NCBI GenBank assembly: GCA_020137815.1
Contig: CM035358.1
Coordinates: 1,550,001-1,614,000, forward strand
Reading direction: 5' to 3'
DNA: 64,000 bases
Origin: Hormiphora californensis
Taxonomy: Eukaryota > Animalia > Ctenophora
Below, piece by piece: positions 17,263 to 63,000 of the stretch. Under the pieces are notes generated by a model. That model searched no databases. It had not been told where the DNA came from and saw nothing but the letters and a program-made list of their open reading frames with translations. The position numbers and the translations under genes are program-made. Within the stretch, counting starts at the first letter, position 1, and each line of letters opens with the position of its first letter.

Positions 17263-17299
<37 letters not shown>

Positions 17300-17509: not shown

Positions 17510-17551
<42 letters not shown>

Positions 17552-20589: not shown

Positions 20590-20623
<34 letters not shown>

Positions 20624-23978: not shown

Positions 23979-24749
23979 CAGAGAGAGACAGAGAGACAGA
24001 GAGAGACAGAGAAATTGAGTAAATAACTTTAGAGGATTGTTGAGGCGCATGCCATACAGATTACAGCAGCGTATGGCTGATAGAGTGTGTGTTAGAGGCC
24101 TCAATTCTCAACTTACCTTTGCTTGTTGTACTTTGCTTTATTCGTTTCGTCCTATATACTAGTACTATTCTTCGTTATCAGGTGTATTTATGTGGTATTT
24201 ATTATAGTTCTTTAAGTAGCCCTCACTGACTATTAAGTCGCCCCGTGCTCTTTTGTTGCACCAGCTCTACCTTTATTGTATAGTGTTGAAAATTGCAGTT
24301 CTCTTCTTTCGTTCTAATCTTGATCACTGTGTTTTGAGTTTAGCCTCTATCTCTATCTCTCTATCATTATCTCTCTCCATTATCTCTCTCCATCCCTCAC
24401 TGCGGTATAATTCGTATAAAAGTGTAATCGATTAAACTTTACTAGCTGCTGTTCTAGTAGTGGATATTATATTCAACTAAAGTATTGCTACAGTTGTCTG
24501 ATTGCTACAGTTGTCTGATGCTTCTATATATTTAATTTTAATTCATCTGCTAGATCATGTCTTGTACATAATATCTGCATTTGATAGAGTCTCTCCACTG
24601 GTCACTGGCCACTTTTGTTTCAAACATCGAATTATTATTATCCTCTGAACTACGTTGAATTATGGAAACATTTGACCTACATTTATAAAACTTCCATCCT
24701 AAATGTTCCTATAGCTCCCTGATATATATCGTCCTGTGGAGTTACCACA

Positions 24750-30700: not shown

Positions 30701-31317
30701 GAAGTACGTTCTCCATGCTTAGCAGTTCTTTCTCTTGATATTGTAGAGTAGTAGCTATACTTTCATTTGCTATGTCCGGAGAGTCGAGCAAGACAATCTT
30801 TCATGACTTAGTTGAATACGATCATGAACTGTCTGCTGTTCATGACTTGTTTCTATTAGATCTATAGCAGGTTGAAAGGTCTAACTACTCGTCTAATGGT
30901 CTGATTCTGTCTACAAAATACGTCTATTTCTAGTCTACTTCGTTCTTACTTTCCGACTTTTTATCTCAAAATCTTTTGATTTGTCTGATATTTAAAATCT
31001 ACCGGATAGATAGCTTAAGTTGTTCATCGTCTGTTCTACCTGACTAGTAAATTTCTAAACTTCTAAACTTTCTAAACTTCTAAACTTTTTGTTGTTTTTG
31101 TCTCCACATGTCATGTTTTTGTCTCCACTTGTTGGTGGTTGGTAGCTTCATTCCAAGTCGTCTTTCTTGTTGTCTGTATGCTTGCGTCTGTCCTTGTCGT
31201 ACTGTTAGTGTAAACTATATGTCAGCCAATCAGTTTTACTAATCCGCCCACGCAACCAACTCTCTCTTCTCTCTCTGCCTCTTTGTCTACTCTCTCTATC
31301 TCTCTGTCTACTCTCTA

Positions 31318-31348
<31 letters not shown>

Positions 31349-33273
31349 TCAAGCGTCTGTCTATTCTCCTTCTACATAATACCCTCACAATTCGTCTATA
31401 CCCACAGCCTCATTCAATCTTGACAAAGCCCTCTCTACCATAACGGGTACACACCAATTAGTTACGTCCGTCTGTGTCTCTTACACAAATGTCTGTCTAT
31501 CTGTCTGTGTCTGTCTGTCTGTGTGTCGCTGTGCTGTCTGTCCCCTATCACATCTCTATCCCCACCCTCTCTCTAGTAATGCTTGCCTCATTTGGCTTCC
31601 TCCCCATTAATTGATCAATAGTGCCAATAACACCCCCCCCCCCTAACAACATCGTACTTGAAAGAAAGAGCACTCATAAGGGGGTCATATCATGATAATA
31701 ACATATGATAATCTCTAGCAGCCAATAACAATTAGAAATCGATCTTAATGTGCATTAGAAATATGTTTTAAGAGCGGAAACATCCCACACAATCCCCCAT
31801 AATCCTCTTGTATTACTAGTCTATATTGCTGCAGCTCTCTCCTTGACATACAATGCAACTTCGTGGTCGGCGGGGTCAGCGTTGTGTACGATTCGATATT
31901 CCATCCTCCCTGTAAGTTATGTGTGTAAGACACTGAATCATTAATAAATACACATGTCACATGCTTGAGAGAAAACAACGTCATTGCTTTTTTGAATGCG
32001 TCATGATCATATTCCTGTTCCTGATGAGTTCCTGATGTGTTCCTTCAAATTGAGTTTCACATTCATCTTGATTGTGTAACACACACATCCCTCTGAGCTG
32101 CTGCTACTGCTGCAGGAGAGGCCTGGGGAGTTTGGAGGTCCAAGGGATATCAAATGTCGAATGTGTTCCTCTGTGTCTTGGGAGACGGAGCGCGCGAGCG
32201 ACATATCAATCTTGGGAGGGATAGTGGCGCGGGGATGGAGGGTAATGGCGCGCGTAACGTGCTTCTAACAAGCAAATTCACCCGCCACTTTTACAGAGCT
32301 GCTCACTGCTTGTCTGGGTGATCAGTAGGATTTTAGGAACAACATCCCTTTTCTAAACTAACCCTTCTTTTTTTCAGAATGCTCCAGACTGACACAGTCC
32401 ACAGAGCGGGGGATAGCATAGAGCTGGACGTGGACACTCAGGACGCAGGAGATGGTCAGCTTGCTGCTGTTGCAATCGGTCCCAAGGGTGATGCAGTACC
32501 TGTTGAGATTATTGCTAACAGAAACAGGACATTCACATTGAAATTACTGACGTCAAAGGGTGGAAGGTTAGTGGTTTGGATCATTATTTCTCTTTTGAAG
32601 GGGCCTACTCTAAAACTCTACTGATATTGAATTGTAATGATGTAACCCCCTCCCTCCTCTGCAGGTACCTGGTTAACGTGTACTTTAACGGTTCTCACAT
32701 CCCCAACTCTCCATTCAAAGTGCGGGTATGTAATCCCGAGGCCATCTGGGCGGAGGGCCCTGGACTGATGGATAGTTTTGTTGGTGAATTGGGTGACTTC
32801 CAGGTGTTTACAAGGGATGCCGGACATGGCACACTCAGTGAGTTAAAACAAATTATTGTTTCCCTCAATTAACTTCTTTCCCTTCCACCATCTCCAAAGT
32901 CCCACCAAACCCTCTTTCAGACTTCACCTCTTTCCCTCATAACTCTCCCCTTTCTTCCTAACTCCCCCTTTCTTCCAGGTGTCAGGGTAAACGGGCCAAA
33001 GGATAAGTTCCGAGTGGACATGTGGAAGGGAGCGGACAGGACAGTAAACTGCCGATATAACCCTGAAGTGGCAGGAAAATATACCATTAACATCAAGTGG
33101 GAAGATGAACATGTTAAGGTAATTTTAATGCCAAACCGTGTTATTTTCTAGTTGTTGGGCTTTTTTTCGTGTTAATATGTTCCGAATTTATTTCATAATC
33201 TCCTCTCCTATCCACTCAGGGAAGTCCGTTCTCTATTCTGGTGAGGAAGCGACCAGAGAATGGTGACTCTTGA
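24750..33273 (+). CDS. Short filamin-like protein (3 calponin-homology domains + 4 filamin Ig repeats); 14 exons (24750-25014, 25362-25480, 26501-26659, 26716-26873, 27054-27166, 27631-27764, 27890-28066, 28173-28434, 29029-29109, 29541-29655, 32378-32566, 32665-32837, 32979-33118, 33220-33273), ~712 aa
   Basis: CH1: IQAHTFIRWMN..GNVKLILGLVWMLI. CH2: NFTNDWNDGRVLSALV..VDELSIMTY. CH3: DWSNGVNLAFLVE..ELQMATYLWQF. Four Ig repeats end in HIPGSPF, PVPGSPF, HIPNSPF and HVKGSPF. Phases are consistent over 2139 nt. Confidence 0.88.
25622..26470. mobile_element. Non-autonomous TIR element in filamin intron 2
   Basis: Ends cagtgcccagggtgtgctattt..tcaaatt and aatttgaaatagcacaccctaggcccactg. Internal 20-bp tandem repeat (caaaaatgaacattttttgt x3) at ~26096-26155. 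Confidence 0.7.
30054..30319 (+). CDS. Probable alternative first coding exon of the filamin-like gene (splices to 32378)
   Basis: Acceptor tttag|tacatcATG, then 88 codons + 2 nt ending cag|gttcgt. This is phase 2, the phase exon 11 needs. Splicing into it from exon 10 hits an immediate stop. Confidence 0.5.
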
Positions 33274-36459: not shown

Positions 36460-36886
36460 TTAATGTGTTTCTATGTATAATTCAATTAGCTCTTTTTTTA
36501 CTGGGGCATCCATTGTTGACTATTATCTAAATCTTCGACTCTCTCGCTAATACCTTGCCCTCAGGAGTTATAAGAGCTAGAGGATCGTGATATTGGCAAA
36601 GAGGATTTAACAAGAAATCAAGAGGATACATTACTTGAGGATTTCTTGAGGATCTGTAGCTGTGGAGGATGTTGGACGTTTGTATCATTTTGTCTCAGCG
36701 AACAAGGTAAGAACTAATCCTGGGGTGGCGAGGGGGTGGTAATATCAATCTTGTCCTTTCTACACTTCATGGCCACTGTTGTTGAGTAACAAGGTCACTG
36801 GGGGTACATTGCTTTTGCACTTAGAATCAGCTCTTGGGTCTCGGGTGCAACTTTTCCCCCTGCCTAGTAGGATCAGATCCATCCAC

Positions 36887-39800
36887 GGTATGTTATATGA
36901 TAGCAGTTTGACAACACATTTTCTTCTAATTTGTCAACTTTTGAGTCACCCATGCAGCTCGCTTGGTCTCCAAATAGAAGTGAAATGGATTACTGCAGGG
37001 GTATCCATGCACACTAGTAAGGCTGGCCTACTTGCACTAAACTTTTAGATCTGTTGAAACTGTGACGGAGTTTCAGGCTACATTTTAAATTGCTCACATA
37101 GTAGCCTTTCTTTGTGAAACCGTGAAGGGGTTTCCTGCATACGTATTATGAAGCACTGAATTTCTGGTTCATATGTCAATTGTCCTTGACCCCCAAAGTT
37201 ATTAACCCGGGTGTTACTCACCAAATCTGAGCTTAGTGCAGTTGTCGCTGCACCCAGTTAACTCGATAACTGGTCAAAATGTAGACAGTAGATTGTAGAT
37301 GTAAATTAGAGCTGCCAATTATATAGTCAATATAAGTTTAGTTAAGTAGTTAATATATTCAAAATTTCTGATATTCGAGAGGTCCAATTGACTGGATTGG
37401 ACCGTTTTTGTCTTGAAATGTTGCAGCAGTCCTAGCACCTGCAGCTGTGTGACTGGCTCCGGGCTGTCTGTTATGACTCATCAAGGTCTGCCGAGATCAT
37501 TTCCTAATTCTAATTCACACATGCTGTACTGGTCTATTGTCGGCCGTCAACTGACTTTAGCTTCCTGTTTTGGTGTGCTTCGGAATTTGGAAGTGATTTA
37601 ATTGGAACTTGGTAGGTCATAGCGCCTTTATTTTGTCTGAAGTGACAAGAGTTATTTGTTTGTACTCTGCCCTCTTATATGGGCACTAAAGTGTCGTCAA
37701 CAGTAAGGCCATGTGTTAAATGTGTAATTTAGAAGCTTCTGAAGTTTTGGTTCCATGTACCTAACTCCCCTCCCCCAACCCCAGGTCCGTAGAGGTCAGC
37801 ATACAACGCCGCTGTTTGAGTTGAAAACGCTTGGAACCTACACAGCCTTGAACAACGGTATGTTATGATAGCAGTTTGACAACACATTTTCTTCTAATTT
37901 GTCAACTTTTGAGTCACCCATGCAGCTCGCTTGGTCTCCAACTATAGAATTGAAATGGATTACTGCAGGGGTATCCATGCACACTAGTAAGGCTGTCCTA
38001 CTTGCACTAAACTTTTTGATCTGTTGAAACTGTAATGGAGTTTCAGGCTACATTCTAAACTGCTCACCTGGTAGCCAATCTTTGTGAAACCGTGAAGGGG
38101 TTTCCTGCATTATAATATTTAGAAGCACTGAATTTCTGGTTCATATGTCAATTGTCCTTGACCCCCAAAGTTATTAACCCGGGTGTTACTCACCAAATCT
38201 GAGCATAGCAGTTGTCGCTGCACCCAGTTCACTCGATAACTGGTTAAAATGTAGGCAGTAGATTGTAGATGTATAACAGAGCTGCCAACTATATAATCAA
38301 TACAAGTTAAGTAGTTAATATATTCAAAATTTCTGATGTTCGAGAGGTCCAATTGACTGGATTGGACCGTTTTTGGCTTGAAATGTTGCAGCAGTCCTAG
38401 CACCTGCAGCTGTGTGACTGGCTCCGGGCCACGAGATCTTATGGCAAACTTCTGTTAACTGATGTTTACCGCACACAATAATGGGAACGTACAAATGTAA
38501 AGTTAATGCTAAGCACAGAGAGCTTTGTTCGGCTGGATGTGTTCTGGTAATGCGTTGACAGCAGCGCATTGCCGGGGGCGGCAACACAAACTGGCGAGTA
38601 GTCGGGGCGATTGACAACCGAACCGGCTACTTGTAAAGACACGACGTGGTAGGTCCATTCTCCCGGGTCCGCCCAATAGTGGAGGTGGGATCGTCAATCG
38701 ACCAGTCGGTAGGTTGGTTGGCGGTTCTGTGTCACCAGCGCCGTTGGACTGTTGTTTGGGGTTCACCATAAGGGACAATGAGAAGCTTCACAACCTTCTA
38801 CAGACTCCTAACGTCCCCCTCATTGTTCCCATTTGATATCAGTTATACACAGTAGTTTGCAAACCAAATTATATAGTGGGCTCTAGTCAAGTCGATTGTT
38901 GAAGTAATAAAATTTGGGAAATTAAAAGGCCGCCAAGTCCTGCATCTCTCCCACCTAATTATCATTGATGACAACCCCTAGTTAACAATGTATTTCTCTT
39001 CAACTAAACACCGCCAGGACTTGGCACCAAGGCCAGGTGTTTAGTTGAAGAAGTCTTGATTCCATGTACCTAACTCCCCCTCCCCCACCCCAGGTCCTTT
39101 GAGGTCAACATACCACGCCGCTGTTTGAGTTGAAAACACTTGGAACCTGCAGAGCCTTGAACAACGGTATGCCCGGTGTCCCGATTTTTTTTTCACGCCT
39201 GGAATTTTCATTTTGGGAGCTCGTTTTGCTGCAGGAATTTTACTATTTGCTGCAGTCATTGAGTCATGGATAGGGATTTTACCGTCCTAAAATACCCCGG
39301 CAGTCCCAGTACCCCTAACATTGGAATATTTCCCTACTGCAGTCCCTATAAGGTTGGAATATTCCTTGGAATATTCCATCTTTGCAGTGCCTGCTGCAGT
39401 GCTGCTGCAGTAGTGGAAATTCCTTGGAATATTCCATCTTTGCAGTGCCTGCTGCAGTGCTGCTGCAGTAGTGGAAATTTTTTGGAATATTCCACTCAGG
39501 GACTGCAACAGTGACTATAACGATCTCACCCCTTTGTAAAGCTATGGGGAAAAAAGAGAGCTATGTTAAAGTATGAATCTCTCTTTTCTTCCCCTTCCCT
39601 GCTGCAGTGCTGCAGCGACTGCAGAGATGGAAAATTCCGAGAAAATTCCACTCAGGTACTGCAACAGTGACTATAACGATCTCACCCCTTTGTAAAGCTA
39701 TGGGGAAAAAAGAGAGCTATGTTAAAGTATGAATCTCTCTTTTCTTTCCCCTTCCCCCTTACTCGACTGTTGTCGGTGCATTACGCACAACTGGGGCATG

Positions 39801-42800
39801 CCCCAACATATTCTATCTCTCTGTTATAACAGAGAGATAGAATATGTTACACACTGCTGCAGCACTGCTCTGTGTGTAAGTATGGGAAATATCTTCTGCT
39901 GCAGTAGCAGCTGCTGCTGCAGTCCCCCAATATTTTTTCATTTTGCTGCAAGGATTTTGTTTTGCTGCAGAATTTTTGCATTTATCTTTCCTTCATATTC
40001 CAGAGATCGGGACACTGGGACGGTATGTTATGATAGCAGTTTGACAACACATTTTCTTCTAATTTGTCAACTTTTGAGTCACCCATGCAGCTCGCTTGGT
40101 CTCCAACTATAGAATTGAAATGGATTACTGCAGGGGTATCCATGCACACTAGTAAGGCTGTCCTACTTGCACTAAACTTTTTGATCTGTTGAAACTGTAA
40201 TGGAGTTTCAGGCTACATTCTAAACTGCTCACCTGGTAGCCAATCTTTGTGAAACCGTGAAGGGGTTTCCTGCATTATAATATTTAGAAGCACTGAATTT
40301 CTGGTTCATATGTCAATTGTCCTTGACCCCCAAAGTTATTAACCCGGGTGTTACTCACCAAATCTGAGCATAGCAGTTGTCGCTGCACCCAGTTAACTCG
40401 ATAACTGGTTAAAATGTAGGCAGTAGATTGTAGATGTATAACAGAGCTGCCAATTATATAATAAATATAAGTTAAGTAGTTAATATATTCAAAATTTCTG
40501 ATGTTCGAGAGGTCCAATTGACTGGATTGGACCGTTTTTGGCTTGAAATGTTGCAGCAGTCCTAGCACCTGCAGCTGTGTGACTGGCTCCGGGCCACGAG
40601 ATCTTATGGCAAACTTCTGTTAACTGATGTTTACCGCACACAATAATGGGAACGTACAAATGTAAAGTTAATGCTAAGCACAGAGAGCTTTGTTCGGCTG
40701 GATGTGTTCTGGTAATGCGTTGACAGCAGCGCATTGCCGGGGGCGGCAACACAAACTGGCGAGTAGTCGGGTCGATTGACAACCGAACCGGCTACTTGTA
40801 AAGACACGACGTGGTAGGTCCATTCTCCCGGGTCCGCCCAATAGTGGAGGTGGGATCGTCAATCGACCAGTCGGTAGGTTGGTTGGCGGTTCTGTGTCAC
40901 CAGCGCCGTTGGACTGTTGTTTGGGGTTCACCATAAGGGACAATGAGAAGCTTCACAACCTTCTACAGACTCCTAACGTCCCCCTCATTGTTCCCATTTG
41001 ATATCAGTTATACACAGCAGTTTGCAAACCAAATATAGTGGGCTCTAGTCAAGTCGATGTTGAAGTAATAAAATTTGGGAAATTAAAAGGCAGCCAAGTC
41101 CTGCATCTCTCCCACCTTATTATCTTTGATGACAACCCCTAGTTAACAATGTATTTCTCTTCAACTAAACACCACCAGGACTTGGCACCAAGGCCTGGTG
41201 TTTAGTTGAAGAAGTCTTGATTCCATGTACCTAACTCCCCTCCCCCAACCCCAGGTCCTTTGAGGTCAACATACCACGCCGCTGTTTGAGTTGAAAACAC
41301 TTGGAACCTACAGAGTCTTGAACAACGGTATGTTATGATAGCAGTTTGACAACACATTTTCTTCTAATTTGTCAACTTTTGAGTCACCCATGCAGCTCGC
41401 TTGGTCTCCAACTATAGAATTGAAATGGATTACTGCAGGGGTATCCATGCACACTAGTAAGGCTGGCCTACTTGCACTAAACTTTTTGATCTGTTGAAAC
41501 TGTAACGGAGTTTCAGGCTACATTCTAAACTGCTCACCTTGTAGCCAATCTTTGTGAAACCGTGAAGGGGTTTCTTGCATTATAATATTTAGAAGCACTG
41601 AATTTCTGGTTCGTATGTCAATTGTCCTTGACCCCCAAAGTTATTAACCCGGGTGTTACTCACCAAATCTGAGCATAGCAGTTGTCGCTGCACCCAGTTA
41701 ACTCGATAACTGGTTAAAATGTAGGCAGTAGATTGTAGATGTATAACAGAGCTGCCAATTATATAATAAATATAAGTTAAGTAGTTAATATATTCAAAGT
41801 TTATGATGTTCGAGAGGTTCAGTTAATCAGTTGGTTGGATCGGACCGTTTTTGTCTTGAAATATTGTAGCAGTCCTAGCACCTGCAGCTGTGTGACTGGC
41901 TCCGGGCTGTCTGTTATGACTCATCAAGGTCTGCCGAGATCATTTCCTAATTCTAATTCACATATACTGTACTGGTCTATTGTCGGCCGTCAACTGACTT
42001 TAGCTTCCTGTTTTGGTGTGCTTCAGAATTTAGAAGTGATTTAATAGGAACTTGGTAGGTCATAGCACCTTTATTTTGTCTGAAGTTATTTGTTTGTACT
42101 CTGCCCTCTTACATGGGCACTAAAGTGTCGTCAACAGTAAGGCCATGTGTTAAATGTGTAATTTAGAAGCTTCTGAAGTTTTGGTTCCATGTACCTAATT
42201 CCCCTCCCCCAACCCCAGGTCCTTTGACGTCAGCATTCCACGCCGCTGTTTGAGTTGAAAACGCTTGGAACCTACACAGCCTTGAACAACGGTATGTTAT
42301 AGCAGTTTGACAACACATTTTCTTCTAATTTGTCAACTTTTGAGTCACCCATGCAGCTCGCTTGGTCTCCAACTATAGAATTGAAATGGATTACTGCAGG
42401 GGTATCCATGCACACTAGTAAGGCTGTCCTACTTGCACTAAACTTATTGATATGTTGAAACTGTAATGGAGTTTCAGGCTACATTTTAAATTGCTCACCT
42501 AGTAGCCAATCTTTGTGAAACGGTGAAGGGGTTTCCTGCATTATAATATTTAGAAGCACTGAATTTCTGGTTCATATGTCAATTGTCCTTTACCCCCAAA
42601 ATTATTAACCCGGGTGTTACTCATCACATCTGAGCATAGTGCAGTTGTCGCTGCACCCAGTTAACTCGATAACTGGTTAAAATGTAGGCAGTAGATTGTA
42701 GATGTATAACAGAGTTGCCAATTATATAATAAATATAAGTTAAGTAGTTAATATATTCAAAATTTCTGATGTTCGAGAGGTCCAATTGACTGGATTGGAC

Positions 42801-43530
42801 CGTTTTTGGCTTGAAATGTTGCAGCAGTCCTAGCACCTGCAGCTGTGTGACTGGCTCCGGGCCACGAGATCTTATGGCAAACTTCTGTTAACTGATGTTT
42901 ACCGCACACAATAATGGGAACGTACAAATGTAAAGTTAATGCTAAGCACAGAGAGCTTTGTTCGGCTGGATGTGTTCTGGTAGTGCGTTGACAGCAGCGC
43001 ATTGCCGGGGGCGGCAACACAAACTGGCGAGTAGTCGGGTCGATTGACAACCGAACCGGCTACTTGTAAAGACACGACGTGGTAGGTCCATTCTCCCGGG
43101 TCCGCCCAATAGTGGAGGTGGGACCGTCAATCGACCAGTCGGTAGGTTGGTTGGCGGTTCTGTGTCACCAGCGCCGTTGGACTGTTGTTTGGGGTTCACC
43201 ATAAGGGACAATGAGAAGCTTCACAACCTTCTACAGACTCCTAACGTCCCCCTCATTGTTCCCATTTGATATCAGTTATACACAGTAGTTTGCAAACCAA
43301 ATTATATAGTGGGCTCTAGTCAAGTCGATTGTTGAAGTAATAAAATTTGGGAAATTAAAAGGCCGCCAAGTCCTGCATCTCTCCCATCTAATTATCATTG
43401 ATGACAACCCCTAGTTAACAATGTATTTCTCTTCAACTAAACACCGCCAGGACTTGGCACCAAGGCCAGGTGTTTAGTTGAAGAAGTCTTGATTCCATGT
43501 ACCTAAACTCCCCCTCCCACCCAGGTCCTT
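36887..43530. repeat. Modular tandem array: shared ~680-bp core alternating with cassette A (~630 bp) or B (~290 bp), order B-A-A-B-A
   Basis: Core marker cggtatgtta..tagcagtttgacaac at ~36887, 37856, 40021, 41326 and 42290. After gactggctccgggc the unit continues either tgtctgttatg (B: 37464, 41907) or cacgagatc (A: 38430, 40595, 42863). Confidence 0.92.
39172..40019. mobile_element. Non-autonomous DNA transposon with 14-bp TIRs and an 8-bp TSD (hAT-like), inserted in one array unit
   Basis: acggtatg|cccggtgtcccgat ... atcgggacactggg|acggtatg. The empty site is visible in the other array units. Internal ~59-bp and ~157-bp duplications. Confidence 0.9.
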
Positions 43531-43539
43531 GGGTCCAAC

Positions 43540-44329
43540 TTCTTGTGAATTTGTGTGTGATGATTATAGGGCCCATATGGATCACAATAGTGAAGGAAAT
43601 TAGCTTGGTTATACATTTTCCATAGTTCGGGCCTTTCTTGAGCTAAAATGCCCTAATTACAGGTATTGAGAGTGAGCTGTTTGCCCTGTTCATATAATTT
43701 GTTTTTCGCGACATTACAAAAAAAAACGGTTGATTTGAAGTAGGGCAAAAATGTCTCTCAGAAGAGCCACCCCCAAAAATCGGACCTTTGAATGTTTTTT
43801 AAGGAACCTAGTCCTCAGGTCCTCACGATCAACCGTTTTTGAGACACAGGGAATTTTATTTATTCTGAAATGGACGGCTTCCACAAAAACTCTGTACAGC
43901 CTTATCTATCAATAAGGGACACGCCCAAAATTTATGGCCACTTAGATAATCGTTATACGACAACTTTCTCCCAATTTACAAGCTTACATGTTCGGGAACT
44001 TTGCCAAATAGGCGTTTAAGTGAAAAAAAAGAATCCACCTCAGGACCGGAAATCATCGGATTTGCAAAAAAAATTTGTGTATGTGTTATCACCTCAGTTC
44101 CTCTCTTCAATCATCCCACATTTGCCGCTCTTATCTTCAAAAATTTTTTGTGGGATTGCCAACCAAACGTCATGTTCACGGACATTTTTATAGAAAGCTG
44201 AGCACACAAATCATGACATTCGACTTGAGAGCTCAAATTGCATATTTAGGTCTCCTTGGGCATGGCTACAAACCCACGGTTGAGTAGATTTCCCGCACTC
44301 GAAAAAATTTTTGGTTTAGGGCTGTACCT
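43540..44329. mobile_element. Truncated copy (spacer + one arm) of the foldback element at 59673-61061
   Basis: Reverse complement of ~59673-60430, ending gtacc|ttaa with the same flanking sequence. Confidence 0.8.
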
Positions 44330-47700: not shown

Positions 47701-48151
47701 GCTGTAGTCCCCACCTCTGTAGCCGTCAAAAACGCGTGTTACTAGGTGTACTGGAGCGCAGGCCAGCGTTAAATCGTGGTGTTGGGATGTGCTGAATAAA
47801 CGGTTTTTTTAGGTTGTAGGCTAAAAGTAGGGTTTTAGGCCGTTGGGGTTAGCCTTGAAATTTCATACTAGCTTAAACTTTGATTAGCACAAACGGTTTG
47901 TGTGGTTTGGAGATTAGAGCCATTTAGTGATACTGAAAAGTGAATACAATTTTTAGGGCGCGATTATAATCCTGGGTGCCTTGCAACTTGTAAGGTCGCG
48001 CTACCAAAAGAGTACACTGTAGACCGACTTTTGCACACGGCTATCCGCGATGAGCCACAAATCAACATGCCAATGTGAGTAATAGAACGTATCTGTTAGA
48101 GAATCGATTAGCCCTAAACCGTAACCAAACCAAACCCTAAACGAATAGCCC

Positions 48152-51100
48152 TTTCAATTCAATTCACTTCAATCATTTGCGCACAATAACAGGAATTTTA
48201 AAACCCATAAACCTCCTCATTAGTCTTCAATACACCACCAGCTCAGCACAAACAACAGTCATCAGATTGGAAATTGATCAGGCGCCACTGCAGGATAGAG
48301 TTGTTGTCATTAGATGGATCACCCGATAATAGTGTGGAGTATAGGGATGAAACAAACGGTAGACACCCAGCGTGATTAATTGGGAAGTGTCGGTCCTCCT
48401 TACATGTCGTGTAGAGTGTTCCCAGTTGGGGCCCTTAAAGCCATAGAAAAGAAACCACTCAAAAACTGTGATATTTGCCGTTGAGCTTCAATAAGAATAT
48501 CTGGAAACGAATTGCTCTGGTCCAGAACGGGGGCTCTCACAAAGCCCAGGTTGGTGGTGTTTGTGATTCACATTGTATATTTTTTTTTCCAGGACCATTA
48601 TCCAAGTTGTATCTCTCACGAGTCTTTGAAAGTGACAGTAGACACAGGGATCGGAGTCTCTGCCAGTAGTCCAGGCCTTTAAGGCCTGCGCTTTACGAGT
48701 AAAAGCACGTGATATATCCTCTAAACGACTGATATCGCCAATCTTGGTGGGGGACCAAAGAGTACAAACAGTAGTCCAGGTGTGGACGCACCAGGGATTT
48801 GTATGTAGAGGGTAACCATGTTGCTCCGAGAACGGACCTGATGCACTGAGGGTCCAGCCGCAATACGTCTCGCCTCGGAGTATTACACGAGATATCTGGG
48901 CTGACCATGAACCGTCGGAGGAGAGGAAGAACCCAAGATCACGAACGGTACGGAAGGGATAATATCTCTACCGTCTGAAAGATGATATGTATAGTTCTCG
49001 GCACTAAGGGCATTTCCCTGAGAGATGATGTGTGATTTAGTGTATAGTTCATCACTTCAAAACTTTGCTTGGTGGAGCGACATATTGTTGATATCTGCCA
49101 AGAAATGATCTGTTGAGATCCTCTTGAAGGAGGACTTATCCAGTAACGTTCGTATAGCAGAGAAGATTTTGGTATCGTCTTGCAAACGACAGGACGAGCC
49201 GTGTTGACTAAGAATCTAGGTCGATCACACCTATGAGAAATAGGATTGGGCCTAGAACTGGTCCCTTGGGGTACACCACTAATCACTTGAGCGAAAGAGG
49301 AAGGGACACCGTCGACCATAACAGTTTGCATCCGATCGTAAAGGAAACTACTTAGCCAAGATAAAAGTCTGCCCCTTGACACCATATTTCTGGAGTTTTT
49401 CCAATAGAATGCCAATGTCCACCCTTATCAAATGCCTTCTCAAAATCGAGGTGATAAGAGCATCTACCTCGGAGACCATTGAGATTGTTCAGTAGGTTGC
49501 AATATGACGAGTGAGTTGCGAGATACAGCTCGCTTACTTCTGAATCCATTTGGGAGAGTCATTAAAAGATTTTCTGACTCAAAATACGATACAAGTGGGA
49601 ACGAACAACTCTTTCGAAAGTTTTAGTAATGTGACTGGTCAATGAAATTGGCCGATAGTTTGCAGCAACATGACTTAGAACCCTTTTGTAGAGGGGTGAT
49701 ATGAACTGCTGCTTCAGGGTACGTAGGAACTGCACCTGAGTTGAATGATTACACCCACAGGATAACAAAGGGTATGATAGAGATGACCGACAGTCACGTA
49801 GTAGAATTCTGGCGAATATCCCCTGGTGGGCGCTGGAGTAAGGGTTCAGATCGGCTACACGCCTTCTCAATGTCCGATGGAGGAGAACAATATGTCTGAA
49901 ATACTGGACGTTGATGGCGAAATAGATGAGGCTGCAGCTGAAGGGGATGTAGAGGGAGCAAATACAGAATGAATTGGACTGGAATAACTCGGCTTTTCAG
50001 AAGCTCATCCGTTTAGTGATCCATCCTCTCGTTAAAAATGGTGGAATCCGTAACGCATTTACGCTTTCGATTTGCATAGGACCAGAAAAACTTCGGATTT
50101 GACTTGATTTTATCCAAGAACCCCCTGTTCCTCATCATCCAACCGCTGTGAGATGTGGGCCATTATCCTCAGCGTGACCCTGGCAACGCTAATTTCAAGT
50201 TGTGGATAGATTTGGGTAGTGTGTTGGAGCGATAGACAAACGTTTGTTGAGACTTCTCTGCGATTTTCAGGCGCCTCAAAATAGGGATCAGACGTTTGTT
50301 TCCCGCTTTCTTTTTCCTCTTGGAGTGATGAGACAAGACCTGCAAGATGGTCAAGTTGAAAAGTTGGACACAATCTGATCCGTCCTGTCATTACAGATAT
50401 CAGCAAGCATCCCAGTCGATAAGGTTTAGCTCGTTACGCATTGATGGGAAGTCCGCTTCATGAAAATTGAATGCAAGAAAAATCCTCAGATTGGAGTCCC
50501 GAACTGGCTGGGACTTGATACCAAACCCAAGAGTACATGTTACCATTTGGTGATCGAGAAAGTTTGGATCTGATACATGGTATCTATGACATAATCAGGT
50601 CTGTTAGTCAAAAACAAGGTCCAGGGTATTGGACCTCTGGTGGACCATCGACAATTTGAGTCGGAAATGAGAGGCTGAGAAATCGAGCAGGTTCCGGATG
50701 CATGTATCAGGGGCTTCCATGGACACCCAATTGATGCCAGGCATATTAAAGTCCCCTGTTAAGAAAACTGTCCGGTGAGTGAACGTTGTCAGCGCCACAA
50801 CTGTCGATGAATTGGGACACACCGTTGAGAAGATCGGCAATTGGAGCATTTGGTGCACGCATAAACCACGCCTAGACATGGAGTGGCTTTCTTTAATGTA
50901 CACGATAGCTGCACTGCTGGAGGAATCAGAGTAACGGTAGTCGAGTGAGATAGGAAGTTGGCTGTTTACATAGAGGGCAACACCCCCACCTCTTCTACCA
51001 TCACGGCCACTCCTGATGAGGTGGAAACCTTCAATGTTGCAACTGAGATCACTAAATGCATCACTCCCACCAAGTTTCAGTTATAGCATGCATAGTATGG

Positions 51101-52712
51101 GGTGTGAAGAAGTTCTGTAAGGTGTCCCTGAGATAGGAAGCTTCCACTTACATTCGCTTACCCGCAGAAGGGTTAACTACGGCGTTGATACTGAGTAATT
51201 TCGAATCTTTCCAGTGCTCGCGGGAATAGCATTGGAGTTGTGCACAGGCTGGCTGAGGGAGATATTGGGGCGTGGTGGAGTGTAGCCCTGGAATTCCTGT
51301 CTCATTGAGTCCAGGGAGTTTTGACCTCCCGTAGTATGTCGTCGCGTAACAGTTTCCATCAGGTTCATCGAAAAATCCTGCTGCGTATTTGGCGTTTTTC
51401 GACGGCAGGAGAGACAGATTTGTCCACTCTGGTTTTGGGGACGATTTTGTGAGCCAGACTGAGATTTCCTGTACCAGATTGGGGTTTTCTGGCATCGTTA
51501 TTGGGTTTTCTTGGCATTAGGGGGGGGGCGTCCTTTCCTCTTTTCTGCGGTGAACTTAAGATGATCCTCTTGCAGTCTCTGTTCGTAAAGAATACCCGGG
51601 AATCTCAGACTCTTTGCAGAGTGGAGGATGGAGATAGGAGCAGTTGTTCCCTTTGTTACAAACCGTGATTCCTAGTCGTCCCATATGGCTAAACCTAAGA
51701 CACACTTGGGGGTGTTCTTTCTTGCAGGTTTTACCATTAACCAACTTGCACCATCGGGTACCGTGCGGCAGTCCCTTAGTAAGTGGCGTTCAAGACCATT
51801 TTTGAACTTGGATTTGGATTGATAGAAGTTGGGTTTCTTATCATCCTGATCCTCGTCTGGGTCCTCTCCGAACTCAACTCGGGGATGATCTTAGTGTCTA
51901 GAACAGTTTAAACCACCGACTGGAGTTGTCATGTCGGGATCATTGTTGTTGGCTTTGAGAACTGTCGATGTTGGCCTCGGATTCACCGACTTGGGAAGTT
52001 TGAGAATTTTTGATCTCTTTTGTTCACCTTGGTCTTCTTCTTTTTCTTCATCCCACTTCTGCCTATTTGGGGCTGATCTTGAGCTGGAATTCCGAATCAG
52101 ACAGGTTTGGGTTATCTTGGGTTAATGTCACCGTAAAGGTTTTCGGTTTATCCCATTTTTCTTCTCACAGGATGAACATATCCAGTGGGAGCCAGGAATA
52201 GATCCAGGGGACCCTGCCATCGCGTCACATACGTGGGCTCCTTGGCCACAAAGGTAAAGCAGCGAATAGAAGGAGATTCGCCGAGCTTAAAGGCGTACAT
52301 TTCGTTAACAACCCTGCATCTACGGGAAAGTGGCTTTCGAGCTGCATGATAAGGTAGTCCGATAGCGTGGTGCGATTTGGTACCGTTTTGTTTTTTCGCA
52401 TTTGACCCGGGAGAAGCACCAAAAAATCTTCCGGCAGCTTCGAGTGTTTCGCAGTTAAAAGCTCGAAACACTTCTGGTTTTGTGTGTAGTGGACATCGTG
52501 ACGGTATGGCCGATAACACCTTCCTCGTAAGTGAGTCAGCCTGGTGATAAGAGCTGCAACGCAAGGATGCTACCATCGACATCGACATCAGAAGTTTCAT
52601 TGATTCATTAACCATCTTTGACATAGGGCTTGACCCTAGATAGGAAGATTTGAAACGCACAGGCGCGCGCTCAAATTAATTTGTTTAAAGTAGTGTTGAA
52701 AAGTTTGAAACT
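48152..52712 (-). mobile_element. Full-length CR1-clade non-LTR retrotransposon (ORF1 with PHD-like and CCCH fingers; ORF2 APE endonuclease + RT), many frameshifts
   Basis: ORF1 from ATG 52624: IRCF.CGQGAHVC and CKKEHPQVC..CNKGNNCSYLHPPLC. APE: GGGVALYVN, GDFNMPGINW, NTLDLVF. RT: NYRPISLTSHITKTFERVV, LDFEKAFDK, SGVPQGT. CR1-type YKSLVRPHLDYC. 3' tail of (ATTGA)-like repeats at ~48152-48176. Confidence 0.92.
52670..52712 (-). other. Spliced-leader exon sequence fused to the LINE 5' end
   Basis: Minus strand reads AGTTTCAAACTTTTCAACACTACTTTAAACAAATTAATTTGAG, matching the Pleurobrachia-type ctenophore SL as I recall it. It is followed by CGCGCG rather than a GT donor, so it is not an SL RNA gene. 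Confidence 0.85.
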
Positions 52713-53093
52713 TACCCGTCGCGCGCGCTAAAACTACAAATTGTTAGTAATGAAAAGCACCCAGATTTTAAGGTTTTCTGAAAATTCACTAACCCCAACA
52801 CGGAAAACGTTAAAATCTGGGTGCCTTTCATTGCTAACATTCGTAGTTTTGGCGCGCGGACGGTTAGGGCTATCCGTTAGGGTGGTTAGGGTTTGGTTTG
52901 GGTTATCGGTTAGGGCTATCGATTCTCTAACTGATACCCGTTCGTTTACTCAAATCGGCCATGTGGTTCCATGGCTATAGCCGTTTGAAAAAAGTCGGTC
53001 TAGTATACTCTTTTGTGTAGCGCGCAACCTGTAAACAGGCTGCAAGGCACCCAGATTATAATCGCGCCCCCCCCCCCCCCAACACCGATTGGC

Positions 53094-54237: not shown

Positions 54238-56935
54238 AGTTAGAAGAAAATTTGTTGTCAAACTCCAATGATAACATACCGTTGTTCAAGGCTCTGTAGG
54301 TTCCAAGTGTTTTCAACTCAACACAGCGGGCGGGGTATGTGACCTCAAAGGACCTGGGTTGGGGGGGGTTAGAGTAACATGGAATCAAGACTCTTCAACT
54401 AAACACCTGGCCTTGGGGCCAAGTCCTGGTGTTGTTTAGTTGAAGAGAAATACATTGTTAACTAGGGGGTTGTCATCAATGATAATTAGGTGGGAGAGAT
54501 GCAGGACTTGGCGCCTTTTAATTTCCAAATTTATTACTTCAACAATCGACTTGACTAGAGCCCACTATATAATTTGGTTTGCAAACTACGGGTATAACTG
54601 ATATCAAATGGGAAAATGAGGGGGACGTTAGAGTTTGTAGAAGGTTGTGAGCTTCTCATTGTCCCTTATGTTGAACCCCAAACAAACAGTCCAACGGCGC
54701 TGGTGACACAGAACCGCCAACCAACCTACCGACTGGTCGATTGACGGTCCCACCTCCACTATGGGCGGACCCCGGGAGAATGGACCTACCACGTCGTGTC
54801 TTTACAAGTAGCCGGTTCGGTTGTCAATCGACCCGACTACTCGCCAGTTTGTTGTTGCCGCCCCCGGCAATGCGCTGCTGTCAACGCACTACCAGAACCA
54901 CATCCCAGCCGAACAAAGCTCTCTGTGCTTAGCATTAATTCTACATTTGTACTTTCCCCTTATTGTGTGCGGGGTAAACATCAGTTAACAGAAGTTTGCA
55001 AAGATCTCGTGGCCCGGAGCCAGTCACACAGCTGCAGATGCTAGGACTGCTGCAAACATTTAAGCACAAAAACGGTCCAATCAGTCAATTGGACCTCTCG
55101 AACATCATAAATTTTGAATATATTTAACTACTTAACTTATATTTATTATATAATTGGCCGGCTCTGTTATACATCTACAATCTACTGCCTACATTTTAAC
55201 CCGTTATCGAGTTAACTGGGTTGCAGCGACAACGGCTATGCTCAGATTGGTGAGTACCACCCGGGTTAATAACTTTGGGGTCAAGGAACAATTGACATTA
55301 TATGAACCAGAAATTCAGTGCTTCTAAATATTATAATGCAGGAAACCCCTTCAGGTTCACAAGATTGGCTACTAGGTGAGCATTTAAATGTAGCCTTGAA
55401 ACTCCATTACAGTTTCACAATCAATATAAGTTTAGTGCAAGTAGGACAGCCTTACTAGGTGCATGATACCCCTGCAGTAATCCATTTCAATTCTATAGTT
55501 GGAGACAAGCGAGCTGTGTGGGTGACTCAAAAGTTGACAAATTAGAAGAAAATGTGTTGTCAAACTGCTATCAACATACCGTTGTTCAAGGCTCTGTAGG
55601 TTCCAAGTGTTTTCAACTCAAACAGCGGCGTGGTATGTTGACCTCAAAGGACCTGGGGGGGGGAGGGGGGAGTTAGGTACATGGAATCAGACTTCTTCAA
55701 CTAAACACCTGGCCTGGTGCCAAGTCCTGGCGGTGTTTAGTTGAAGAGAAATACATTGTAACTAGGGGTTGTCATCAATGATAATTAGGTGGGAGGATGC
55801 AGGACTTGGCGGCCTTTAATTTCCCAAATTTATTACTTCAACAATCGACTTGACTAGAGCCCCACTATAATTTGGTTTGCAAACTACTGTGTATAAACTG
55901 ATATCAAATGGGAACAATGAGGGGGACGTTAGGAGTCTGTAGAAGTGTGAGGAAGCTTCTCATGTCCTTATGGTGAACACCCAAACAACAGTCCAACGGC
56001 GTGGTGACACGAACCGCCAACCAACCTAACGAATGGTCGATTGACGGTCCCACCTCCACATTGGGCGGACCCGGGAGAATGGACCACCACGTCGTGTCTT
56101 TACAAGTAGGGTGCGGTTGTCAATCGACCCGACTACTCGCCAGTTTGTGTTGCCGCCCCCGCAATGGCTGCTGTCAACGCACTACCCGAAACACAATCCG
56201 CCGAACAAGCTCTCTGTGCTTAGCATTAACTTTACATTTGTACGTTCCCATTATGTGTGCGGTAAACATCAGTTAACAGAATTTGCCAAAAGATACTCGT
56301 GGCCCGGAGCCAGTCACACAGCTGCAGATGCTAGGACTGCGTGCAACATTCAAGCCAAAAACGGTCCAATCCAGTCAATTGGACCTCCGAACATCATAAA
56401 TTTTGAATATATTAATACTTAACTAGATTTATTATATAATTGGCAGCTCTGTTAATTCGGTACAAGACTACTGCCTACATTTTAACCAGTTATCGAGTTA
56501 ACTGGGTGCAGCGACAACTGCTATGCTCAGATTTGGTGAGTAACACCCGGGTTAATAACTTTGGGGGTCAAGGACAATTGACATTATATGAACCAGAAAT
56601 CCGTGCTTCTAAATATTATAATGCAGGAAACCCTTCACGGTTTCACAAAGATTGGCTACTAGGTGCAATTTTCAAAATGTAGCCTGAAACTCCATTACAG
56701 TTTCAACAGATTCAATAACTTTAGTGCAAGTAGGACAGCCTTACTAGTGTGCATGGATACCCCTGCAAAATCATTTCAATTCTATAGTTGGAGGACCAAG
56801 CGAGCTCATGGGTGACTCAAATTGACAAATTAGAAGAAAAATGTGTGGTGTCAAACGCTATCATAACATACGTTGTTCAAGGCTCTGTAGGTTCCAAGTG
56901 TTTCAACTCAAACACGCGGCGTGGTATGTTGACCT
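54238..56935. repeat. Inverted copy of the tandem array (two core+A units and the start of a third), running into an assembly gap
   Basis: Reverse complement of the 40021-41326 type unit with ~1.3-kb period and scattered 1-nt indels. Confidence 0.9.
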
Positions 56936-57035
56936 NNNNNNNNNNNNNNNNNNNNNNNNNNNNNNNNNNNNNNNNNNNNNNNNNNNNNNNNNNNNNNNNN
57001 NNNNNNNNNNNNNNNNNNNNNNNNNNNNNNNNNNN
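56936..57035. other. Scaffold gap (100 N)
   Basis: Run of N. Confidence 1.
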
Positions 57036-60000
57036 ATTCGGTCACAACCCCATTCACTACAAGGTTTGCAGTGTTATCGTTGGAGATTCATACCGCTCAA
57101 AATAATTCAAAACATGTTGAAATAAAAAGCTGCATGGCTGGTTACATTTTGTTTATCATACCTTGTGTGGCTCAAATCGTCATTTTATTTTATAAAATAT
57201 TTCTATGCTGCATGCTACATGTTAGATGTTTGAACACATATATTTGGGTTGCTTCATACTATTACACCTACAATCACAGTGTTATACACGGTGTACGGCA
57301 CGAGATGTGATTGCGAGTAATGTTGGTATGGAGGTTGAGATAGCTGGAACGCTAGTACGATGCTTCAAAACCGTACGGGATATCAAGTTGTTCAACTTAC
57401 GCGATGAAGAAGGTGAAATATTGGGAGGTCTGTGTTTTGTCTGTCATTCTTTCTACCGTTTGGCTGTCATTAACTCCCAAAAATGAACGGTTTTCAACTT
57501 GATAAACTGATAAAATATTTATGTGCTGTGCTGGATAGGAAACTTTTCTAGTCTTCTAGTATTATATGGTAGCATATATGAACATATAATCATTTCCTTC
57601 CCCCGTTCGGACAGATGACAATGGGAGTTACTCTAGTGTGGGTGTGTTGTGAAAAGTCTCCTTAGTAGAATGTAGTTCGTTTGACCCTTGACTCGACTCG
57701 GAGCTAACCCTCTCCAGTCTCCGAATAGTGATGACTTTTCTAGTAAATTTATTAAACTTCAGGTCACCAGACTCAAATTGTCGTGGGAAGCAACATAAAA
57801 GATACTGACATGATCAAAAATGGACGAGTTATTGTTCGAGTAAGTAGATATATCTTGTGTAAAATGCGTTCGATTTTTTATTATTTATTCCAATGATCTA
57901 ATCGAGTCTTTAGAAAATAAGATAACACTACTTTCCCAGGGAGTGGTTACAAAACGTCCCAGCAAGGCAAAGACCGTCCTTTACCAAGTTGTTCTCCACC
58001 ACTGGGAGCCTGACACGTCCAGACATGAGGAAGTGGAGGATAGGTCCCCCTGCAAGGCATCAAACGAATCACCTAGGAGGAACAACAATTGGACCAACAG
58101 GGGAATTGATAACGGTGACAGGGGAAATAGAAATGGTGACAGGAAAAATAGTAGCAACAGTTCTAATAACAGAGATAACCATAGAACACAGAGAACTGAA
58201 TCAAGATCTCAACCCCGTGGAGCTAAACAAGGAAACCCCCGAAATCAGGAATTTAATAACGATCAGCACCATTCTCCGAGACAACACGATAACAACAGAC
58301 CCCGTGAACAGCAGCATAGATCAAGACTGCGGTCAGGGGAGAGTGTACCCCCGCCCCTGGTACCCATCCCGTCCTCAACAGCTGATGATACGTGTAGTGT
58401 AGTTAGCATGCCTCCTCCTCTGATACCAATAAAGAAAAGGACTAGTGGGGGAAACCGGCATTATCAAGAGAACAGGCACACCAACCATCATCGGGGATCT
58501 CAAGCATCAAGTCACAGCAGGTGAATATATTTCATGAGTTAGCATTTGGATCAGATATCAGTATTTTGATCATTAACTTTTCTGTATTTTATCACTTACA
58601 ACCACTGACACCTCTTTCTTACTCCTTCTCTTTCCATATTATAGTTCCTCAACTGGTTTCTCCCTTGACTACCACCCAACTGTCTACCCAGAGTTCCTAC
58701 ACACCTACCCTGCCGGATCTCTTGTCACCATCTGGGGAACACTATTTGAGTAGGTGTAGCATTATCATTATCAATTATCATGTAAATTGTACCCCATTAT
58801 CTCAGTGTACACTGTACATTAAAGTGTAGACTACCCCGTTATCTCAGTGTACAGTGTACAAACTGTACATGTGTACTGCTTCTCTATCAGATGATACCCT
58901 AACACTGCCCTCCCTGGTAGGTGTAGCCCAACAGGAGCCCACATTGTCAAAGGTGACTGTACAGTAAAGTTAGTCCTCCCAGAGCCCCAGTACCGGCTAG
59001 AACGGAAAAAGGTCCTGGTGGAGGGTGTGTGTATGGGAAATAAAGGCCAGGAGGCTCTTCTGAGAGTAACCCATATTCAGGAGATTCAGGGTAACTTGGA
59101 AATGTGTCTGAAATTCCTCGCTTCTGGGAGTAGCAAGGTGAGTGGGGTGAACTTTGGTTTGCATACATAGTTGTTGTAGGTCACTACTTTTGGTAATGGT
59201 TTAGTAATTTCAACGAGAGATCTAACCAATCACACCTTGATCTGCTGGAATAAAATGCGGTGTGAGCCACAAAAATTATACTGTGAATCCCATTTCAGCC
59301 ACCCCAGCGCCACCCCAAGAACATATCGGACTACCCGCGGATACTTCGCGGATCCCAACTCCGACAACACCACGGAAACATGGTGATGTTCCGGGGGAAG
59401 TTGGTCAAGGGGGCAACACCAACAAGTGAGTTAATAGGCAGTTTATGTTTTGGAATTAAGAGTGGGCTCAGGGTATCATATTGTTGACAATAATTTTGGC
59501 ACCCCCTTAGATTTGGATACACGTCTCATCTCATCACCAACACGTCACATCCACCATGGTCGTAAGTTTGTCGCAGAACTAACAAACAAACAAACAAACC
59601 ATCATAGAACTAACATCTCCCCACCGTAATACACCCGTATAAACCACCGTATTTTCATTTTGACCCTGTTAAGGGTACGCTAACCAAAAATTTTTTTCGA
59701 GTGCAGGGAAATCTCTCACCGTAGGGTTGTAGGCCATGCCAAGGAGACCTCAAATATGCAATTTGAGCTCTCAAGTCGAATTCATATTTTTGCTACAGCT
59801 GTTTAAAAAATGTCCTGAAAATACGTTTTTGGCATCCCAAAAAAAATTTTTAAAGATAAGAGCATGAAAATTTGGGGATTTGAAGAGGACATGATGGTGA
59901 ATAACCACAAAATTTTTTTTTGCAATCCGAGCTGATTTCCGGTCCTGAGGTGGATTTCTTTTTTTCCACTTTAACGCCCTATTTGGCAAAGTTCCGAAAA

Positions 60001-63000
60001 CATGTGAAAGCTGTAAATTGGTGAAAAGTTGCGTCTAACGATTATCTAAGTGGCCATAAATTTTGGGCGTGTCCTTATTTGAGATAAGCTGTACAGAGTT
60101 TTTTTGTGAAAGCCGTCATTTCAGAAATAAATAAATTCCCTGTATCTCAAAAACGGTTGATCGTAGAGACCTGAGACTATGCTTAAACGATTCAGAAGGT
60201 CCGATTTTGGGGGGGTCTTCTGAGAGACATTTTGCTCCTACTTCAACCGTTTTTGCTGTAATTGCGAAAAACAAATTCTATGAAAAGGGCAAAAGCTAAA
60301 CTCCAATATCCTGTAATTAGGGAATTTTAGCTAAGAAAGGACCGAAACTATGGAAAAATGTTAAACAAGCTAATTCCTTCACTATTTGGTCCATATGGGT
60401 CCCTATAATCATCAAAAACAAAATCACAAAAAATCCACGATGGCGAAGATGGGTTTTTGTTTTTCGCAATTACAGCAAAAACGGTTGAAGTAGGAGCAAA
60501 ATGTCTCTCAGAAGACCCCCCCAAAATCGGACCTTCTGAATCGTTTAAGCATAGTCTCAGGTCTCTACGATCAACCGTTTTTGAGATACAGGGAATCTAT
60601 TTATTTCTGAAATGACGGCTTTCACAAAAAAAACTCTGTACAGCTTATCTCAAATAAGGACACGCCCAAAATTTATGGCCACTTAGATAATCGTTAGACG
60701 CAACTTTTCACCAATTTACAGCTTTCACATGTTTTCGGAACTTTGCCAAATAGGGCGTTAAAGTGGAAAAAAAAGAAATCCACCTCAGGACCGGAAATCA
60801 GCTCGGATTGCAAAAAAAATTTTTGTGGTTATTCACCTTCATGTCCTCTTCAAATCCCCAAATTTTCATGCTCTTATCTTTAAAAAATTTTTTTTGGGAT
60901 GCCAAAAACTTATTTTCAGTTCATTTTTCAAGCAGCTGTAGCAAAAATATGAATTCGACTTGAGAGCTCAAATTGCATATTTGAGGTCTCCTTGGCATGG
61001 CCTACAACCCTACGGTGAGAGATTTCCCTGCACTCGAAAAAAAATTTTGGTTAGCGTACCCTTAAGGGTACACCTGGCGTTTTTCATCATCGAGTGCCCA
61101 ACCAAATGACTTCACCAGGGTTTAGGTCATACAAAATGGACCTCAAATATGCAATTTTAGCCCTAAAGTCGAATTCATATTTTTGCTACAGCCTATTTTC
61201 AAAGTGGCGTTTTTTTAATTTTTGTTGAAATTTTTAACCTCAGGACCACTTTTTTTGAGATAGAAACATTAAATTCTCGCAATTTGAAGAGAATATGAAG
61301 GTGAATAAGCCCAAAGAAGGATTTTTGAATAGGAGCTTTTTTCTGGCCATGAGAACGGTTTACTTTTTTGCTTCTTTGACACGCTGGCTGAGAATGTTCC
61401 CATGCTTCATTAAAAATGAAAATCTGGAAATAGCTGCTCAAAACGATTATCTATGTGGCCCAAAAATTTTGGAACTTTCCCGCCAAAGATGCGGTGTACA
61501 GAGCTTGTTTTGTGAAACCCGTCTTTTTGAAAAAGAGGGAAATTCCCTGTATCTCAAAAACGGATGATCGTAGAGACCTGCGACCAAGCTTAATCGATTC
61601 ATAAGGTCCGATTTTGGGGGGGTCTTCTGAGAAACATTTTGCTCCTACTCCAACCGTTTTTGCTGTAATTGCGAAAAACGTATCGGCAAGTAAGGGGGAA
61701 ATCAGCCCTAAGCAGGCTACTGGAATAGAGTTGTTCCCCCTTTTCATAGAATTGGTTTTTTGCAATTACAGCAAAAACGGTTGGAGTAGGAGCAAAATGT
61801 TTCTCAGAAGACCCCCCCAAAATCGGACCTTATGAATCGATTAAGCTTGGTCGCAGGTCTCTATGATCATCCGTTTTTGAGATACAGGGAATTTCCCTCT
61901 TTTTCAAAAAGACGGGTTTCACAAAACAAGCTCTGTACACCGCATCTTTGGCGGGAAAGTTCCAAAATTTTTGGGCCACATAGATAATCGTTTTGAGCAG
62001 CTATTTCCAGATTTTCATCTTTAATGAAGCATGGGAACATTCTTAGCCAGCGTGTCAAAGAAGCAAAAAAGTAAACCGTTCTCATGGCCAGAAAAAAGCT
62101 CCATTTCAAAAATCCTTCTTTGGCCTTATTCACCTTCATATTCTCTTCAAATTCCAAGAATTTAATGTTTCTATCTCAAAAAAAGTGGTCCTGAGGTTAA
62201 AAATTTCAACAAAAATTGAAAAAACGCCACTTTGAAAATAGGCTGTAGCAAAAATATGAATTCGACTTTAGGGCTAAAATTGCATATTTGAGGTCCATTT
62301 TGTCTGACCTAAACCCTGGTGAAGTCATTTGGTTGGGCACTCGATGATGAAAAACGCCAGGTGTACCCTTAACCCAGCCGGAAGGAGATACCATCTCTAT
62401 TGACTAACATCTCCCTTTATTATAAATTGTAATATGTTTCCGCTCCCACTTCACAATCTCGACCCCTTTTCAGAGGGCCGATATTTCATGACTGTGATAT
62501 TTTCTGATGATATGGAGTGCCGGGTAACCTATGTGCCAATCAAATACAAATACGATAGACTGCAGGTCGGCTGTCAGGTAATGTACCATTCTGTCAAATG
62601 AAGATTAGGAAAATACTAAGCCTTAACTTTGTCTTCTTCGACCCTGTCTCACCACACCCCCAAAAATGTAAAGGAGGGTTAGAACATAACAACCCTAAAT
62701 AATCCCTTCAACATTTAGGTGTTGGTGATTGGTAAGGTTGACTTTGATAACGTTCGACTAGGTCCTGGTGCACTACCCATTGTCACGGCAGAACTCATTC
62801 AAATGATACCGTGAGTATAATGACAGGAAGAAGGGTCTGTTAGATAGAAGGGGGCTAATTATCAGAAAGATAAGATTTTTTAAATCTTTCTCTCTCTCCT
62901 GTCAGAGATGGCGCAATTTCAAATGAAGCCCCGCAACCTGTTGAACCTACCAAGACTGTGATCTACGAGGCGTTAAAGAATATCCTGCTGGAGAGTCTGC

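Follow-up and report, generated by a model that had tools for sequence, protein, structure and literature searches.

A CR1-group LINE headed by the host spliced leader in the ctenophore Hormiphora californensis, and its possible renewal by trans-splicing

How the 5' end and its promoter are regenerated is a basic life-cycle problem of retroelements without long terminal repeats (non-LTR elements), for which two solutions are known, a promoter inside the element and co-transcription with a target gene. The subject here is a long interspersed nuclear element (LINE) of the ctenophore Hormiphora californensis that begins with the spliced leader of its host. It lies on the minus strand of a 64,000-nucleotide (nt) stretch of contig CM035358.1 (assembly GCA_020137815.1, positions 1,550,001 to 1,614,000), called the window below. 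Host trans-splicing that supplies a new leader would add a third solution, one used by an animal's LINEs and by lineages of these that are unrelated.

Among the closest described systems are SLACS, CZAR and CRE, non-LTR elements that target leader genes. Together with the NeSL elements they resemble the present case in having a leader exon directly upstream, and differ in their restriction-like endonuclease, in their location within leader genes and in that the leader is target DNA. NeSL elements too target leader exons (available text of PMC4640811). The Hormiphora element, in contrast to this group, encodes an apurinic/apyrimidinic endonuclease (APE), occupies dispersed sites and takes the leader along when it moves. 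Dinoflagellate retrogenes with leader relics were reportedly described by Slamovits and Keeling in 2008. According to the available parts of PMC12014239 and PMC5585692, genomic leader copies in dinoflagellates have an internal AG onto which a new leader is spliced; there, as here, a trans-spliced RNA is copied into DNA together with its leader, which may serve as a promoter. The retrogenes are host genes with tandem relics, whereas the ctenophore elements are autonomous LINEs and none of the 11 leader heads considered here carries such a relic. In Hydra, the leader is found on about 30% of transposon reads from Iso-Seq (PMC12220107), another instance of animal transposon RNAs taking part in host leader trans-splicing; that figure is an RNA-level count across all classes, and the available portion of that paper does not describe LINE families that begin with the leader in the genome. 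For H. californensis itself, the leader was reported on 56% of Iso-Seq reads, with 718 leader sequences in the genome; in the available text these copies are not sorted by downstream sequence, and the string 'retrotranspos' occurs nowhere in the main text (PMC8527503). No description of leader-headed LINE copies in ctenophores was found in the full-text literature, a scope that excludes subscription journals and Repbase, and the available text of PMC8008620, PMC5240408, PMC3942190 and PMC4233971 has nothing on them.

The 43 letters at the head of the window element are identical to the published H. californensis leader save for a missing initial G (PMC8527503); an earlier note on this DNA, made from the letters alone, had taken them for a spliced leader of Pleurobrachia type. 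They are the only match to the 43-mer in the window (0.00 expected from 100 shuffles), and no other leader match longer than 16 nt occurs there. No GT follows the leader; instead it continues into a 45-nt untranslated region (UTR) and an ATG at 52624. This layout had been described correctly in the earlier note, which also took the 158-amino-acid (aa) frame from that ATG for open reading frame (ORF) 1; all four DNA runs described below carry one extra base behind 52599, so that the true ORF1 must be a different frame. The leader begins at 52712, the base at 52713, previously taken as the start, being target.

That the leader is the first part of the insertion follows from its flanks. Both sides are halves of one arm of a palindromic repeat resembling a miniature inverted-repeat transposable element (MITE), a class name given by shape. 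Its intact partner arm served as empty-site reference, and because the flanks join on it without loss (score 295 joined, 90 and 211 separately; at most one A duplicated), the leader must lie inside the insertion, at its 5' boundary, as the earlier note had it. The uninterrupted arm is also present in four contigs of run X1, with a loose end at 52714. None of the three outcomes that the earlier note had named as refuting came about. Insertion into a leader RNA gene, one of them, is all but excluded: the MITE resumes on both sides, the flanks of a leader gene on a metagenome contig (L022) find no match in the window, and LINE UTR follows the leader in place of a GT donor and intron. The window leader as a leader RNA gene was rejected on the same grounds, and Rfam finds no 5S ribosomal RNA (rRNA) at 46-56 kb of the window. 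A host gene at the insertion site was sought with Pfam, and outside the element 106 of 123 candidate frames from 33.2 to 62.2 kb gave no match.

In two samples, this element's family usually starts with the leader. Four public DNA runs from two samples and two studies (X1, X2, X5 and X6) were aligned to positions 52570-52687, a region covering just the final 18 leader bases, and gave 14 contig records. Contigs crossing from UTR into leader occur in all four; by the earlier note, reads at odds with this junction would have refuted the proposal. Depth at the junction and in the body is 125.6 and 163.1 in X1, 1147.7 and 742 in X2, and 1488.7 and 2431.4 in X5; in X6 one contig runs from 52570 to 52684, through the junction, at depth 3623.9. 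For the window family, no break or loose end stands at 52669-52671, the expected branch point of an outron, in any of the four runs, nor does any of them show an acceptor-bearing 5' end, with the proviso that contigs can drop rare forms. The earlier picture of a leader-capped daughter descended from an acceptor-bearing master is thus not supported by the runs. Contigs end at 52647 in X1 and X2 (branch at 52648), 52638 in X5 (branch at 52639) and 52684 in X6 (branch at 52685); the branch partners, which are not among the records, are probably copies that have been truncated, except that the partner at 52685 is more likely to be a variant of the leader. A second family shares leader and 27 nt of UTR before diverging and is found in all four runs (depth 126, 974, 780 and 2023). 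A third variant has the leader in X6 and lacks it in X2, where record 6 (depth 104, 52635-52667) has non-leader sequence upstream that nonetheless shares the leader's final eight letters and ends in AG, nine letters ahead of the shared UTR; it may represent a different type of leader or a form with an acceptor, or the likeness may be due to chance. In X1, 16 contigs have unlike sequences behind the leader (agreement 0.45), and leader pieces are also joined to other MITE positions.

A further run, X8, guessed to be RNA, covers 3 of 30 bins, nearly all at the leader, and is uninformative either way. Five of its records (25, 28, 30, 31 and 32) are leader copies with three to five changes on contigs extending beyond the leader; these are decayed genomic leader copies.

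Behind the leader stands a 4.5-kb LINE with APE and reverse transcriptase (RT). Its ORF2 aligns collinearly with an APE-RT protein of 942 aa (P0001), from residue 4 to residue 940 and thus through that protein's end, with 605 of 894 columns identical in a frameshift-aware alignment that crosses 48 frameshifts and 4 stops. P0001 has Exo_endo_phos_2 and RVT_1 over the Pfam cut-off, the APE being N-terminal to the RT; among 22 window fragments, APE matches were only under the cut-off and RT matches were absent, because of the frameshifts. A pattern search for P0001 in viral contigs gave seven matches, none confirmed. In the ORF1 region, tblastn with ORF1 of a related locus (L020) matches 52250-52149 (E 0.003) and 51765-51601 (E 1e-8), beside a weak CCCH match under the Pfam cut-off. 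Compared with the contigs of X1, the window is about 5% off (62 substitutions and 141 gaps over 3730 nt). Among the 40 of 86 substitution rows that were listed, most have full share in each of X1, X2 and X5, the last from the second sample, and two are present in only some runs; the element itself is therefore best regarded as young and not as decayed, with the frameshifts of the window copy probably due to assembly errors. A single unbranched 3730-nt contig in X1 has depth 163, against 15-35 for adjacent pieces; the element is therefore likely to exist in several almost identical copies, depth being no copy number.

LINEs of the CR1 group have two ORFs, APE and RT, a simple-repeat tail and no clear target duplication. 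The window element shares these traits, having ORF1, an APE-RT ORF2, a short and imperfect simple-repeat tail instead of poly(A), and little or no target duplication; it departs from the group in starting with a host leader exon instead of a promoter sequence of its own. The earlier assignment to CR1 therefore holds only at the level of the group. A FastTree of 25 rows, containing no curated clade references, places its ORF2 beside unnamed proteins and an ORF2 from Mnemiopsis, apart from the group of locus L007; it is 28% identical to ORF2s of bird CR1 elements. An element of NeSL, SLACS or CZAR type was rejected on its APE endonuclease, the MITE on both sides and the unrelated upstream flanks of ten other loci. 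Membership in dinoflagellate-type leader recycling, which would work in a similar way, was rejected on the lack of tandem relics and the autonomy of the elements. The window element is best explained as a young LINE of the CR1 group, present as a full-length copy, with the host leader as its normal start.

Leader heads are not confined to this family. Metagenome contigs were scanned for the exact last 29 nt of the leader, and the 34 loci recovered, whose DNA or RNA nature was judged by structure only, comprise 23 mRNA-like sequences, one leader RNA gene (L022) and ten other elements; an exact scan of these contigs for the window family's own junction gave no locus. The 23 have the leader at the contig 5' end ahead of unrelated sequence without a match to P0001 (the three that were translated have long ORFs) and look like trans-spliced mRNAs. 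L022 has the leader exon followed by GTAAG, twice, adjoining 5S rRNA. In all ten element loci, the upstream flanks are mutually unrelated and the element is joined after the leader's last AG; two begin with GT, neither with GTAAG. Seven of the ten encode ORF1 and an APE-type ORF2, with L020 a relative of the window element and L003, L007, L008, L015, L021 and L034 a second lineage with L2-like motifs. In the three loci compared, ORF2 identity to the window is 37% for L020 and 18-19% for L007 and L034; ORF1 identity inside one lineage is 31-61%. L016 and L032 have one ORF each and are related to one another, L032 having 18 relatives, mostly on contigs of 1.0-1.8 kb; it may be a non-autonomous, ORF1-only retroelement resembling HAL1. 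L031 likewise has a single ORF, and it carries a repeat related to window 39172-39458. Pfam offers no informative family for the ORFs of L016, L031 and L032, and all three are unclassified. Including the window, the leader is whole in 2 of 11 heads and has lost 1-8 nt from its 5' end in the other nine. Directly behind the leader, L016, L020 and L032 have TTTYAG, a textbook acceptor, and each has a very short upstream ORF; the L020 contig opens with GTAAG, and its element may occupy a host intron in sense orientation. A zone free of AG downstream of the leader was not counted as evidence: the first AG lies at least 22 nt away in seven of the 11 heads and in three of the 23 mRNAs, and six of those seven heads are related. 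A hairpin between leader and UTR was likewise rejected as a general feature (0.25 in the 11 element heads versus 0.15 in the 23 mRNAs, p=0.17).

A leader joined at its donor position is the product expected from spliceosomal trans-splicing followed by reverse transcription. Because this joint recurs in unrelated lineages, it is very probable that each passed through at least one trans-splicing event in the past, in which element RNA would have been trans-spliced by the host and then reverse-transcribed into the genome. Renewal of the leader in every cycle goes further, and the balance tips slightly in its favor. Host transcription would run into a resident element copy, the old leader's own final AG would accept a fresh leader, and the same head would be rebuilt each cycle; splicing at the resident AG would restore the same junction regardless of 5' loss. 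AG is absent from leader nt 3-41 and forms its final letters, an arrangement that suggests an outron plus acceptor. Ragged heads without erosion, together with an unchanged leader on old families, suggest such renewal, as an inherited head would erode: nine of 11 heads lack their first 1-8 nt without cumulative loss, and the same leader as in L022 heads lineages 18-19% identical in ORF2 and families 31-61% identical in ORF1. More tentatively, and with doubt somewhat outweighing confidence, pleurobrachiid LINEs of several clades might have no start site of their own and be cut from host read-through or intronic transcripts, the leader of the last round serving as the next acceptor. If true, many of the 718 leader copies in the genome would not be leader genes and would instead mark the starts of retroelements. 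Renewal would offer an explanation, open to testing, for Hormiphora's hundreds of leader copies that have had none and for its mis-mapped shared first exons (PMC8527503, available text), and the leader would tag full-length ctenophore insertions exactly.

Several observations weigh against renewal and the evidence assembled for it. GAG, which would be the terminal acceptor here, is disfavored as a 3' splice site in animals and may be so in ctenophores, and in the window family the predicted hairpin buries the junction AG. The TTTYAG behind three of the leaders should compete and vanish under routine re-splicing, and tandem relics, which dinoflagellate recycling leaves behind, are found in 0 of 11 heads. 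As to sampling, the exact 29-mer selects perfect leaders, so that leader identity among loci is partly built in; thin metagenome cover assembles multi-copy DNA only, favoring transposons among leader loci. Sample S1 is possibly the window's own source, leaving S2 as the independent support, and the junction contigs hold 15-22 leader letters, none meeting a bridging rule of 31 letters on each side.

Some of these same features would suit permanent capture, in which the leader was gained once per lineage and is now inherited, with an internal promoter, in the leader or the UTR block, that would set the start of transcription at the leader and yield an RNA that mimics a trans-spliced mRNA. No acceptor-bearing form is seen in the four runs, the 27-nt UTR block is kept in three sister families and can pair with the leader's end, TTTYAG is retained in 3 of 10 loci, and a promoter role has been proposed for the dinoflagellate leader (PMC5585692, available text). 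Capture is nevertheless unlikely, given the ragged, non-cumulative loss at nine heads, the identical leader on families so divergent in ORF1, and pairing with the leader that is not general. Rare source copies with promoter, outron and acceptor, of which leader-headed copies would be dead-end daughters, are an improbable alternative. Such forms could drop out of contigs, the branches at 52648, 52639 and 52685 lead to partners that are not seen, and X2 record 6 has the AG-ending upstream sequence that a master might have; yet the break or loose end expected at 52669-52671 is absent for the window family in all four runs, and masters would themselves need replacement over time. Least plausible, and very improbable, is an origin without splicing, whether by template switch or ligation to leader RNA, for which U6-L1 chimeras are a precedent, by insertion into a leader gene, or as an assembly chimera. 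The rough assembly of the window, about 5% off the read contigs, would favor an artefact, whereas the junction is found again in a second sample and study; the joint lies at the donor position, whereas the leader RNA itself extends further, neither side has leader-gene flanks, and the MITE resumes exactly. Trans-splicing in the past, with renewal in each cycle as its somewhat favored extension, is therefore preferred here. The features discussed are collected in Table 1.

Table 1. Features of the leader-headed element, its insertion site and selected metagenome loci
Feature	Sequence	Position	Strand	Remark
Spliced-leader exon, 43 nt, 5' end of insertion	window	52670..52712	-	43/44 letters of published leader
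5' UTR, 45 nt	window	52625..52669	-	52669-52643 (27 nt) common to two sister families, divergent beyond
Predicted hairpin, leader's last 7 nt paired with UTR	window	52648..52676	-	z -2.2 for 52712-52643
ORF1 region, broken by assembly errors	window	51150..52624	-	tblastn with L020 ORF1; lower end approximate
ORF2, AP endonuclease and reverse transcriptase	window	48288..51087	-	67.7% identical to P0001; L020 ORF2 homology from near 51210
3' UTR and short imperfect (ATTGA)-like tail, poly(A) absent	window	48153..48287	-	tail ~48177-48153
Interrupted MITE arm, upstream half	window	52713..52778	-	A at 52713 possibly duplicates A at 48152
Interrupted MITE arm, downstream half	window	47956..48152	-	
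Intact partner arm of same MITE	window	52803..53069	+	empty-site reference
Leader RNA gene alternating with 5S rRNA, 778-bp tandem unit	L022	263-381, 693-735, 1041-1159, 1471-1513		
Complete element of 1.15 kb with shortened leader, single ORF of 327 aa and (AAT)n tail, lacking RT	L032	463-1622		
GTAAG at contig start, ~350 nt upstream of leader	L020	2289-1940	-	

The surroundings of the element are rich in repeats. At 36885-43604 and 54677-56584 of the window, several repeat units 95-100% identical lie about 1-2 kb apart, with inverted copies further on, and large nested palindromes with arms of up to 618 nt at 98% identity occupy 59669-62372. Rfam gives three weak microRNA-type matches on palindromes at 46-56 kb, all far under the cut-off. 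Homopolymer-rich stretches resembling poor reads, and a gap of 100 N, fall at 16900-17560, 20300-22900 and 56936-57035. Host genes in the window encode a PhyH-family protein (4031-4786), a TRIC channel (6441-6707), an MRG-domain protein (12303-13103) and a filamin-like protein (24723-33148).

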